A stretch of 27,591 nt of DNA from a virus (taxonomy: Duplodnaviria; Heunggongvirae; Uroviricota; Caudoviricetes). Below, in pieces: positions 5,825-10,339 of this stretch. The translations under genes and the position numbers were made by a program. The DNA is taken from the IMG/VR virus record IMGVR_UViG_2645727640_000023. The stretch is one strand, 5' to 3'. Every line of letters starts with the position of its first letter. Position 1 is the stretch's first letter. The notes under the pieces were generated by a model, which saw only the letters and a list, made by a program, of their open reading frames with translations, ran no database searches and was not told where the DNA came from.

Positions 5825-7897
5825 TTACCAGCCTGTAATGTAGTTATCGCCCGCGTAAATATTCAGCCCCATACCGTCCTCGGTGACGCGGGAACTGGTC
5901 AGACGTAACCCCTCGGCAAGTTCGACGCGCAGCGAGGCTTCCGCATTCACTTTTTGTTCCTGCGGTTCCTTATCCGGGGCCGTCCATTTCTGATACAGGT
6001 CGGTTACAAAACCGCCCAGATACTCCCCGGCGACACTGCCCAGCGTGGCACCGGCAACCGTACCCAGCGGTCCGGCAAGGCTGCCAACGGCACCGCCGAG
6101 CCATGCACCGGCTGTACTGCCAATTGCGCCTGCTTTTTCATGGGTTGACGCCTGCTCATCCATCAGGACGGGGGCAAGCTGGAGTGCCCCCATTACCGGG
6201 CCACCCAGACGTGACAACGCACGACCGGCACCTTTCCCCATCCAGCCCAGCGCCCCGGCACCTTTTGTCACAACCCGACCGATCGCACTGCCTGCAAGTT
6301 TGTTTCCGATACCGGAAAACCACCCGCCAACAGCACGCCCGGCATCAGCCAGCTTTCCGACCGTTCCCGTAACCAGTTGCCCGGCAGCACTGCCTGCAAG
6401 CCTGCTCAGAAGACCGGATTTACCGGGTAAAGGTAATGGTGCAGGCCGTGCTGTTACCGGTACGCCGGGTGGCGGTAATGCCAGTACAGGGCGTGGTGCA
6501 GGTAATGCCAGCGGCTGTGGCCCGGACAGCAATAACGGCTGGCGGGGTAACAGCGGGGCCATTCTTCCGCCGCTCCGTCCGCGACGACCGCCGCCACTCC
6601 CGTAGCCACCAAATCCACGGGGCCAGTTGATGACAAACACACGCTGAATGCCGATACCCTGCAACAGCGTCTCAGACGTCATGGCATCCGGGACCGGCAG
6701 ACCTGCCTGCCCACGTTTGCGGTTTCGCATCCAGCGCCACATACGACGCCCGGTTTTAAACGGATAACTGGCAACCTGCCATGAGGGTTTTGCCACGGCC
6801 CAGCCTGCTCTCAGGGCTTTATTGGCAAGCCAGACAGACACCAGAACAGCAGCCAGTTTTTTCAGGCTGACAATATTCTGGTCAACCCATGCCAGCGCAT
6901 CTTTACCCGGTTTCAGCCAGCGCCATAATTCCTGCGCCGCGATTTTTACCGTTCTGAACGTGGTCAGAAATTTCTGACCAATGTTTTCTGCCAGTGCGTC
7001 AAGTTCCCCGGATTTATCCGCCATGTCGTGCCAGTTAAGCACCCGGCGCATCTCGTTCTTGATTTCTTCAAAGGGGCCGCTGTTTGCCACCTTTATGCGA
7101 AATTCAAGCAGGTTAGCTTCCATCTGGGCGAACATCCCGTCCCAGGAGTTCATCGCACTGGCCTGTGCACCTTTTGACTGTTCTGACAGCGTTCTGAATA
7201 CCGTCAGAATGGATTTCAGACCCAGCTTGCCTTTTTCACCTTGTTTGCGGATATCCTTAACGTCTTTACCCAGTGCATCCGCCAGCGTCTGGTAAACGTT
7301 AATACCGTAACCGGTCAGCAGGTTGGCATCCGCCGCCGTGATTTGCTGGCGGGCAAACATCTGTTTCAGTTGCAGTGAGGCACCCTGTGCAGTGGGTAAA
7401 TCCCAGCCGTGCATGGCCCCCTGATCCTGCAACATGGTGATGAACTGTTTCGTCTGTTCATCCGTCATGCCGAAGCCTTTCGACGAACGGATCTCATCCA
7501 GAACACCACTCAGCCCCCACGTGGTGTCCTTCGCGTTCTGCTTTGCCCAGGCCATCATGGCCTGCGCTCTGACCTTATCGCCGTGATACAGCAAGTTCAT
7601 GGCGATAATTTGCTGCTCACGCTGGGCGGCTGCACCAATAAACAGTTTATTGGCGGTGTAACCCACACCAGCGATACCCAGCGCCCCGGCTGACAGCATT
7701 CGGAATGTACGGGTTGACAGTGAACCCATTCTGTCAATGGCACCAGAAACGCGCACAACCTCCATACGCAGGGCACGAAGGGAACTTTGTCCGCTACGGG
7801 ACAGGGCGTTTATCTGGTTCGAATACTGGCGGGAACGCCGGGAAAGATTGCCATTAAGATCAATAATGACAGACGCCTTTAAGCGTTTCCCGGTCAT
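5825..7897 (-). CDS. Y: Tail tape measure protein (Mu gp42-like)
   Basis: ORF track 690 aa; long helical N-terminal half, then a Pro-rich segment (residues ~447-492) and Gly-rich GxxxG-type repeats (~493-630); AGGAAA Shine-Dalgarno 8 nt upstream of ATG 7897. Confidence 0.85.
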
Positions 7898-7911
7898 AGA
7901 GATTTCCTGAT

Positions 7912-8079
7912 TTAACGGTGATATTGAGAGAGGGTTTTAGCCTGCTGGCAGTGCCGGAAAAAGCGGGACAGCGGGAGGGATAAGGCCCATTCCGGGCCAC
8001 TTTTCAGAATAACGCCAATCGCTGTCGCCGCTTTCTCAATATCATTCCGGCACCGCAGCCACTCGCCCCCGTTCTTGTG
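7912..8079 (-). other. Candidate +1 frameshift extension of the tail chaperone gene (55 open codons bridging its 3' end to the tape measure start)
   Basis: The +1 frame relative to the chaperone is open from 8079 to a TAA at 7914-7912, 14 nt before the tape measure ATG; possible shift site GGG-CGA within the run CGGGGGCGAG (8071-8062). Confidence 0.3.
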
Positions 8080-8476
8080 TCAGCGATGCCGCCACAGCCA
8101 TGTCGTACATTTCTGTAGCCAGCGACAGACGCTGGAAGTCATCAACAGACAGCTTGCGCATCAGCGCCAGCGATAACGGGCCTTTGATGCAACCCACGCT
8201 GGCAATCTGTCGGCGCAGCATTTCCAGTCCCATCCGGGACGGGGAACTGACCAGCACCGGGCCTTCCTTGCTCATTACCAGCTTTTCAGCAGCCGCCTGG
8301 GCATCAATCAGATCGCCTGCGGTCAGTTCACGCAGCGTCACGTCATACTGCATTTCAGTCTCGTCACCGGTGCCGAACGGCAGGCCGTCTTTCAGTTTCA
8401 GCACGCCGGACTGAATTTCTGCCACAATGCTGTCATGCAGTTCCTGTGCTTCAGGACCTAAATTCATTTCGTCCAT
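8042..8476 (-). CDS. Tail assembly chaperone candidate (Mu gp41-like)
   Basis: ORF track 144 aa, acidic (MDEMNLGPEAQELHDSIVAEIQ...); lies between tube and tape measure genes, the usual chaperone position. Confidence 0.7.
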   Translation of the reverse strand: MDEMNLGPEAQELHDSIVAEIQSGVLKLKDGLPFGTGDETEMQYDVTLRELTAGDLIDAQAAAEKLVMSKEGPVLVSSPSRMGLEMLRRQIASVGCIKGPLSLALMRKLSVDDFQRLSLATEMYDMAVAASLTQERGRVAAVPE

Positions 8477-8485
8477 TGTTTCCCC

Positions 8486-8842
8486 TTATGCAATGCGTTT
8501 GCTTTGTTTTGCCATCAGTACCAGCGAAATTTCGCCGCCGTCGTTTTTCGGTTCATCTGCCTGCCAGGCATTCGCCATCATCCAGGTTTCACCGGTGTCT
8601 GCCTGAAACTCTGCCGTGATGTTTTCCCAGCCGATGATTTCATCCAGACCGATATCACCACCGCCCGGAATTTTGCATTCCAGCTTTGCGGCACGTGGTT
8701 TACCTTTCCAGCCATAAACCCGCGAGCCGGTCACTTCTTCACGGGTGATACCGGAAGGCGTGAAGGAGGCACCTTCCATCGTTTCAAGCTCCATGCCATT
8801 GACACGGATGAACGCCACCCCCTGACGCTGATTTCCAGCCAT
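8486..8842 (-). CDS. M: Tail tube protein
   Basis: ORF track 118 aa; immediately downstream of the sheath gene. Confidence 0.85.
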   Translation of the reverse strand: MAGNQRQGVAFIRVNGMELETMEGASFTPSGITREEVTGSRVYGWKGKPRAAKLECKIPGGGDIGLDEIIGWENITAEFQADTGETWMMANAWQADEPKNDGGEISLVLMAKQSKRIA

Positions 8843-8851
8843 AAATGCTCC

Positions 8852-10339
8852 TTACAGAATGAACTGAACTTGTGCCGCGAAAATGCGGAACTGGTTAATC
8901 AGATTCGGGCCGCAAAGCACATCAAGACGGTCTTTGTCGTCCTTGTTACGTGCCACATACAGCTCCTCTTTGAACGTGTCGAAATCCTCGACCAGTCCGG
9001 CGTTTTCCCATTCTTCAAACAGTGCCAGCAGCTCCGTTTTGATCACGGATGGCGTCACCACGGCCTGACCGGTGGCAAAGCGGGTGCCATCACTTGCCAG
9101 CTTGTAGTTCGGGAATTTCTGCGTGATGCGGGTTCGCAGTGAATAACGCAGATAACTCAGCGTGGCGATGGTATTCACGTTCAGATAAGACGGATCACTG
9201 TCACCGTACTTGTTTGTGCGGTACATCGTGATCATGCGTTCAATCTGCATTTCACCACCATCATTCACGTTAAACGTGGAGATGCCGTCAAACAGCAGCG
9301 CATTACGTTCTGACCAGGTGAAACGATCCCCCACCGCAGGCGGCATTCTTCCGGGCAACGTCAGCGTCTGGAGAGGACGCGCCGGGTCGATGGAAAGCGC
9401 CTGGCTGGCAACGGCACACAGTGTGGCGGCGTACAGATATGACGGTTCCGGTGCACCGGCAATCCCCATACAGGAGATCAGATGATCATTACGACTGACA
9501 CCAAACGTGGAAATATCCCCACACGTGCCGGACAGCACTGTCACAGCAAAGCCATCAGCCTGATTGACCGGTCCCCAGCGTTCCTGCAATTCAGTGCGTA
9601 ACAGATTCAGGTTCGGTTCATCGGTATAGGGCATCACAATATATTTGTATTGCAGATCGCCCATTCCCGCGATACTTGCGCTGATATCCGGGTTGCCATT
9701 TTTACCGGAGGCGGCTTTGAATGCCGTGATAATCCCGTAAGGGGTGGTTTCACCCGCGTAATAGTTCCAGCGCACATCCACGGCAGATAATGCACCCGTA
9801 AATTTTGCACTCAGAACCACATCTGCATGGGTGTCATCATCTCCGCTGTCTGCGCGAACTTCTGCCGTCACCGGTAAATCCGGCTGGCCTTTGATTCGGG
9901 CAACCAGCAGGTCAGCCAGCGCAGCCCCTTTTGTACCTGCTGCGACGGATACCGCCAGTCGCTGACCGGCAATATAGGTCACAAGCGAGCCGTTTTCGCC
10001 TGCCGTTCCTGACAGTGAGATTTCACCGACAGCAGCATTACCGGTGCCGTTTCCCTGCGGGATACACCACAGCTCCGCCACGCGGTTAGCGTTCAGGAAT
10101 GCATCTGCCATCAGTGCCAGCATGGAACCCTGACCAAACGCCGCACTGGCCTGTGAGCCGGAACGGATACGGACAGGCACGTTCGGTGCGGCACTGGCTT
10201 TACTTCCGCTTTGCCCGAACATCAGCACGCGCTGGCGGGGAGCCGGTGTTCCGCTGACGGCATTGCTGTTATCAAATTCGATATACGTCAGAGGAACGCG
10301 AACATCTGACGGGATCGCGTTAAATGAAATATCGCTCAT
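8852..10339 (-). CDS. L: Contractile tail sheath protein
   Basis: ORF track 495 aa ([27 protein letters not shown]...); sheath-sized, followed by the tube gene. Confidence 0.9.

Follow-up and report, generated by a model that had tools for sequence, protein, structure and literature searches.

The programmed −2 ribosomal frameshift of gp41/FS-gp41 in phage Mu was reportedly described by Xu, Hendrix and Duda in 2004, and the Mu site is the textbook bacterial case of −2 programmed frameshifting. Reviews treat it as the classic case in nature, with an efficiency of about 2%. The site is listed as a natural −2 programmed frameshift in a 2016 review (PMC5009743), and two papers of 2012 describe it as a tandem −2 slip on GG GGG CGA, in which tRNA-Arg with the anticodon ICG re-pairs better at −2 than at −1 (PMC3458567), and as "the only known natural case" at that time, with an efficiency of about 2.2% (PMC3498833). 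In a purified translation system the Mu 10-mer alone gives about 14% shifting, as read in a 2025 cell-free reporter in which −2 is indistinguishable from +1 (bioRxiv 10.1101/2025.10.02.679949). The GenBank record of Mu (AF083977) carries the product as a two-piece CDS, Mu_56 (UIW09302.1), with the note [quoted passage not shown]. For the purposes of this study, the −2 assignment for Mu rests on that note and on the secondary literature.

Frameshifted chaperone genes lie at the same site, between the tube (major tail) gene and the tape measure gene, in phages lambda (gpG/gpGT) and P2 (E/E+E'). The Mu-type system shares their logic of an abundant short chaperone and a rare, C-terminally extended form, in a ratio set by the frameshift (PMC5009743). 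The recoding event itself differs: lambda shifts −1 at G GGA AAG and P2 also shifts −1, so that an X XXY YYZ heptamer stands against a −2 shift on GG GGG CGA. The known +1 cases (Listeria phage tsh and cps, SPP1, haloarchaeal HSTV-2, and E. coli prfB/RF2) have in common with the Mu-type site the relative frame and a slow A-site codon (PMC5009743, PMC3498833), but there slippage takes place in the P site, on sites of the CCC_UGA or CUU_UGA type and mostly at a stop codon, whereas the Mu-type site has a sense codon in the A site and a reported two-base backward shift. Other natural −2 programmed frameshifts are those of arterivirus nsp2TF (G_GUU_UUU) and Trichomonas vaginalis virus 1 (PMC5009743). 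Unlike the Mu-type shift, both occur on eukaryotic ribosomes, and that of nsp2TF is trans-activated by a protein, with a shift site and a gene function unrelated to the Mu-type case.

Here we consider the corresponding locus in IMG/VR virus record IMGVR_UViG_2645727640_000023, of which the whole stretch of DNA analysed, 27,591 nucleotides, is referred to as the window. The window is the genome of a Mu-type myovirus in reverse orientation, about 25 kb of it being 98–99% identical to Mu, D108 and related phages, and the minus strand is the coding strand for all genes in the region. These follow the order sheath, tube, gp41, tape measure, which is the same in Mu, in D108 and in a related assembly (L123), and the features of the locus are as follows.

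10339..8852, minus strand: tail sheath gene, upstream of the tail tube gene.
8842..8486, minus strand: tail tube gene (gp40/M), directly upstream of gp41; in the ORF list, annotated in Mu and D108, and with a Pfam Tail_tube match on its L123 equivalent.
8476..8042, minus strand: gp41 tail assembly chaperone CDS, the zero-frame product of 144 aa, with its stop at 8044..8042; in the ORF list, with Pfam and PHROG matches, and equivalent to Mu_41 and to D108 gene 41.
8079..7915, minus strand: stop-to-stop open frame of 55 codons, opening directly after the TGA at 8082..8080.
8071..8063, minus strand: slip site CGG GGG CGA, identical in Mu and D108, with the shift octamer GG GGG CGA at 8070..8063; the octamer is the −2 shift site given in PMC3458567.
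GAG 8064..8062 to 7915, with a TAA stop at 7914..7912, minus strand: shifted-frame extension of 50 codons, from translation; it matches PHROG 12783, and has no canonical start, third-position bias, and a conserved length and motif.
8476..7912, joined as 8476..8063 plus 8064..7912, minus strand: FS-gp41 frameshift product of 188 aa, with the junction ...ERGR|EW... according to the tandem −2 model and GenBank UIW09302.1.
7897..5825, minus strand: tape measure protein gene (gp42), 690 aa, directly downstream; in the ORF list, annotated in Mu and D108, and with a Pfam TMP_3 match on its L123 equivalent.

The 55-codon frame is the known programmed frameshift of the Mu-type tail assembly chaperone gene, already annotated in the databases: Mu_56 spans exactly the equivalent stretch. 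The original prediction, made from the letters of this DNA, had proposed that ribosomal frameshifting at the G-run upstream of the tape measure gene yields an extended tail assembly chaperone, and in this it was right. The frame that it described, 55 codons from 8079 to a stop 14 nt before the tape measure ATG, is present with the peptide exactly as quoted. Its offset from gp41 is +1, which is equal to −2, and it overlaps the run CGGGGGCGA (8071..8063); the TAA that closes it (7914..7912) lies 14 nt 5' of the tape measure ATG. The G-run CGGGGGCGAG occupies 8071..8062, and GGGGGCGA occurs once in the window, both strands counted. The zero-frame codons at the run are CGG (8071-8069), GGG (8068-8066) and CGA (8065-8063), so the GGG followed by a zero-frame CGA had also been read correctly, as had the rarity of the latter, which makes up 12 of the 167 Arg codons. 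Between gp41 and the tape measure gene there are 144 nt (8041..7898) without zero-frame coding, and the proposal that a frameshift extension explains this gap was well founded, since the extension fills it. The 144-nt stretch is coding, and should be annotated as part of a 188-aa FS-gp41 whose two pieces meet at the slip site, rather than as an intergenic spacer or a separate "gene 41.5".

At the level of sequence, nothing of substance sets this locus apart from that of Mu. Gene order, the CGG GGG CGA site, the 50-residue extension and the distance to the tape measure start are those of Mu gp41/FS-gp41 (Mu_41, Mu_56, UIW09302.1, P0DJY4), and the best match of the window is D108, to which the 701 bases around the site are 100% identical, as against 98% for Mu. 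gp41 differs from Mu gp41 at three of 144 residues, while neither the slip site nor the 50-residue extension peptide differs between the window, Mu and D108; the extension has two nucleotide differences from Mu, both silent and both at the third position of the shifted frame. gp41 matches the Pfam family PF23746 Gp41_Mu ("tail assembly protein gp41") with E = 2e-34 (118 bits, where the cut-off is 27) and PHROG 508, "tail assembly chaperone", with E = 4.5e-47. The match to Phage_TAC_7, the Pfam family common to P2 and Mu chaperones, is weak and below the cut-off (E = 7e-5). The extension matches PHROG 12783 (E = 2e-30), a family that carries no functional annotation; a Pfam search with it alone and with 15 diverse extensions returned no family, the lone match being a meaningless one to zf-P11 (E = 0.17), and a search of solved structures for FS-gp41 returned nothing relevant.

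At the sequence level the locus has the features that characterise the Mu-type system: a chaperone of the Gp41_Mu family, a position between tube and tape measure, GG GGG CGA with GGG and CGA in the zero frame, an ORF in the −2/+1 frame that lacks a start and ends beside the tape measure start, and a conserved coding extension. To lambda and P2 the extension has no detectable sequence similarity (no Pfam match). Nor does the locus have the X XXY YYZ heptamer and the −1 frame open to the tape measure gene that mark the lambda-type G/GT system, so that its function is analogous but its recoding class differs. The −1 frame runs into a stop at 8006..8004, which leaves 107 nt to the tape measure start; the original prediction had it close after 13 codons, which holds when the count is made from the gp41 stop (about 12–13 codons) but not when it is made from CGA, past which 19 codons are read. 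In relatives the −1 frame usually closes within 1–19 codons, and a −1 frameshift is rejected on the early closure both here and in most relatives.

In our view the Mu-type tail assembly chaperone gene at this locus very probably undergoes programmed −2 ribosomal frameshifting. That the long product exists and that the shift is −2 has been shown for Mu, where the sequence is identical, the −2 assignment coming by way of the GenBank note and the reviews. What the window and its relatives show directly is that the site is identical, that it is conserved throughout the family and that the extension bears a coding signature. All 13 unique close relatives, with at least 92% protein identity, keep both the site and the 55-codon frame. 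In an alignment of 22 diverse homologues, G137 and R138 are invariant and R136 is nearly so. This alignment was used to fetch DNA from species-representative genomes and viral contigs, giving 71 unique sites at 38–92% protein identity, which are not phylogenetically independent and represent roughly a dozen distinct extension lineages. The hosts named among them include Kluyvera, Erwinia, Edwardsiella, Serratia, Brenneria, Pluralibacter, Phytobacter, Vibrio, Aliivibrio, Aeromonas, Endozoicomonas, Kistimonas and Bilophila.

The exact sequence CGG GGG CGA is present at 65 of the 71 sites, so that a nonamer of rare codons is nearly invariant across prophages of Enterobacterales, Vibrionaceae, Aeromonas, Endozoicomonas, Kistimonas and Bilophila. 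Since CGG accounts for 11% of Arg, GGG for 16% of Gly and CGA for 7% of Arg (12/167) in this phage's genes, nucleotide conservation goes well beyond what the residues Arg-Gly-Arg would need. The six exceptions fall into three kinds. One site (L025, an Enterobacteriaceae MAG) has seven G's in CAG GGG GGG CGA with the zero frame preserved; here Gly replaces the preceding Arg codon, giving an even longer slippery run. Two sites have four G's and an intact gp41 frame, namely TCG GGG CGA in an Edwardsiella anguillarum prophage (L027) and CAG GGG CGA in a viral contig (L075); this lineage, at about 52% identity, retains a 49–50 codon extension. In the remaining three a single G is deleted, leaving four, and gp41 is fused directly to the extension: L123 (Logan ERR1010218 contig, gene 1501-2064), L026 (Erwinia tracheiphila ICMP 5845) and L024 (Kluyvera genomosp. 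3 CP022114), with proteins P0003, P0008 and P0025. In these assemblies gp41 and the extension form one continuous ORF of 187 aa (...ERGEW...), and L024 has an additional frame break within the extension. The fusions are either homopolymer sequencing errors or real mutants that would make only the long form.

Openness of the +1 frame in related Mu-like phages had been put forward as a check, and the frame is not interrupted: it is open for 44–50 codons at 69 of the 71 unique sites. Where the tape measure start could be clearly located (24 loci examined), the end of the extension falls within a span from 23 nt upstream to 33 nt downstream of it. The peptides diverge to 10–18% identity, with length, one invariant Pro and an LP[LIV]x[RHQ]L motif being kept. 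Over the 108 nt outside the gp41 overlap, comparison with 12 relatives gives substitutions of 84:41:152 for the first, second and third codon positions of the shifted frame, which is also the frame of highest amino-acid identity in each of the 12 comparisons. Together, these comparisons support the view that the site is a real recoding signal.

The same comparisons bear on the direction of the shift, a point on which the original prediction appears to have been mistaken. It had proposed a +1 frameshift on GGG followed by the rare CGA; in a true +1 shift the peptidyl-tRNA-Gly would slip from GGG to GGC while the A site waits on the slow CGA, giving a product of 187 aa with the junction ...ERG|EW..., one residue shorter than the 188 aa of the −2 shift. 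A +1 shift enters the same frame as a −2 shift, and CGA, which is read through I:A wobble, is rare here. A slowly decoded CGA in the A site is compatible with the published −2 model, in which the same tRNA-Arg (ICG) re-pairs with GGC. What separates the two is the sequence ahead of the GGG codon: re-pairing of tRNA-Gly at −2 needs GG before GGG, and a +1 move onto GGC does not. These two G's are kept at 66 of the 71 unique sites, at 65 of them by way of the rare CGG codon. Such conservation fits the published −2 shift and indirectly argues against +1 as the main route, although it falls short of proof. On GGC, moreover, the tRNA-Gly for GGG would have a mispaired wobble base. The identical sequence in Mu is annotated as "verified -2", and PMC3458567, PMC5009743 and PMC3498833 all describe a −2 shift. 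We therefore regard +1 as an improbable account of the locus, even with the reporter assay of 2025 unable to split +1 from −2 (bioRxiv 10.1101/2025.10.02.679949) and with −2 re-pairing being weaker in the two four-G variants with an intact frame.

The protein records point the same way. We built the three possible Mu products and looked up their exact sequences in a collection of 15 billion proteins. The −2 product that keeps Arg (...ERGREW...) is exactly GenBank UIW09302.1, and the −2 product with Gly (...ERGGEW...) is UniProt P0DJY4, "Probable tail assembly protein FS-gp41", while the +1 product of Mu (187 aa, ...ERGEW...) was absent from the collection by exact-sequence lookup. The 187-aa sequences that the collection does hold come from contigs with one G missing in the DNA, and not from annotation of a +1 shift. 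Both recorded forms of the Mu product have 188 aa, with Arg corresponding to a tandem −2 slip and Gly to re-reading by the P-site tRNA only, and the disagreement between GenBank and UniProt means that the exact event is not uniformly recorded. We infer the residue at the slip-site junction, of which the window equivalent is 8068..8062, to be one of these two, Arg or Gly.

With only four G's, a fully re-paired −2 slip is impossible in L027 and L075. It is conceivable, if unlikely, that the direction of the shift differs across the chaperone family, with the four-G lineages using +1 or a mismatched −2, and perhaps even that the Mu/D108 site makes a minor +1 isoform of 187 aa beside the form of 188 aa.

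Transcriptional slippage could produce a similar set of proteins, if RNA polymerase were to add or drop G's in the G5 run: one G dropped would give ERGEW and two added would give ERGGEW. The homopolymer run does lie exactly at the junction, the ERGGEW of UniProt is the expected result of a two-G insertion, and one-G deletions that fuse the frames exist at the DNA level in the assemblies L024, L026 and L123. Five G's are, however, well below the usual productive run length, productive transcriptional slippage in bacteria typically requiring 8–9 or more A or T residues. The conservation of the full CGG GGG CGA at 65 of 71 sites, CGA included, is what would be expected of tRNA re-pairing rather than of run length alone. 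The literature treats the event as ribosomal (PMC5009743, PMC3458567, PMC3498833), and the 10-mer shifts in a purified translation system, although T7 transcription was used there and slippage is not strictly excluded by that result. On balance we consider this explanation very improbable.

In the D108 record (GQ357916) the extension is annotated separately, as CDS 41.5, a 48-aa "putative phage protein" with a CTG start, of which the window equivalent is 8058..7912. The sequence has been deposited as ACV50301.1 / YP_003335790.1 in GenBank and RefSeq, and PHROG 12783 appears to be composed of separately called extension ORFs such as this one. These records amount to the proposal of an independent small gene translated from its own start codon. 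Yet there is no ATG, GTG or TTG anywhere in the 55-codon frame, which means that it is not an ordinary independent gene, and on this ground independent initiation is rejected. The annotated CTG at 8058 has no convincing Shine-Dalgarno sequence except the G-run itself, in distant relatives nothing at the head of the frame is constant except the slip site, and the curated Mu record has the frameshift product in its place. An independent gene is accordingly most improbable, and "gene 41.5" of D108 is almost certainly the mis-annotated C-terminus of FS-gp41.

The probability of a frame this long being open by chance had been put at roughly 7%, and the figure is sound, (61/64)^55 being 0.071; empirically, 10.8% of the +1-frame codon positions in the real genes of the window have at least 50 open codons ahead. 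With a prior of 7–11%, openness alone is weak evidence, and it is the comparative evidence that carries the case far beyond chance. A chance open frame in a non-coding spacer has a vanishingly small probability given a frame of similar length in 69 of 71 unique relatives, the third-position substitution bias (84:41:152), the conserved motif with its invariant Pro and the experimental verification of the product in Mu noted in GenBank AF083977, and it is rejected as already refuted by conservation.

Under the −2 reading, most ribosomes would read gp41 to its stop at 8044..8042 and release the 144-aa chaperone. A few percent would slip back by two bases with tRNA-Gly on GGG in the P site (8068-8066) and tRNA-Arg (anticodon ICG) on CGA in the A site (8065-8063), where CGA would be slowly decoded. 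After the slip, tRNA-Gly would pair perfectly with GGG at 8070-8068 and tRNA-Arg would pair with GGC at 8067-8065 at two of three positions, including I:C. Reading would then restart at GAG (8064-8062) and continue for 50 codons to the TAA at 7914..7912, giving the 188-aa FS-gp41.

For the molecular role of the extension in Mu-type phages, we infer a model from lambda gpG/gpGT (PMC5009743). By this analogy, the short form, like the N-terminal part of the long one, would bind and coat the tape measure protein, while the rare C-terminal extension would recruit the tube subunit for polymerisation of a tail of the right length, and neither form of the chaperone would be kept in the virion.

No downstream stimulatory RNA structure appears to assist the shift. 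We folded the 60 nt 3' of the site in 17 diverse relatives and found no conserved structure: in the window this segment folds no better than shuffled sequence (z = −0.09), and in most relatives z lies between −1.2 and +0.9, the outliers L030 (−3.3), L035 (−2.4) and L029 (−1.8) having no structure in common. With z scores scattered around zero and three unrelated outliers, a conserved downstream stimulator is rejected. This agrees with the reported activity of the 10-mer alone (bioRxiv 10.1101/2025.10.02.679949), and a nearly invariant nonamer without conserved 3' structure supports the short site being sufficient by itself.

Two further observations are minor. In the viral contig L117 (IMGVR_UViG_2718217984_000001) the extension has only 32 codons, without the LP[LIV]x[RHQ]L motif, whereas its close relatives L120–L122 have 49 codons; degradation or mis-assembly of the L117 copy is the probable reason. 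In the window, the part of the tape measure ORF (7897..5825) at 6300..6650 on the minus strand encodes a Gly/Arg-rich stretch and, after it, a Pro/Leu-rich stretch of low complexity.
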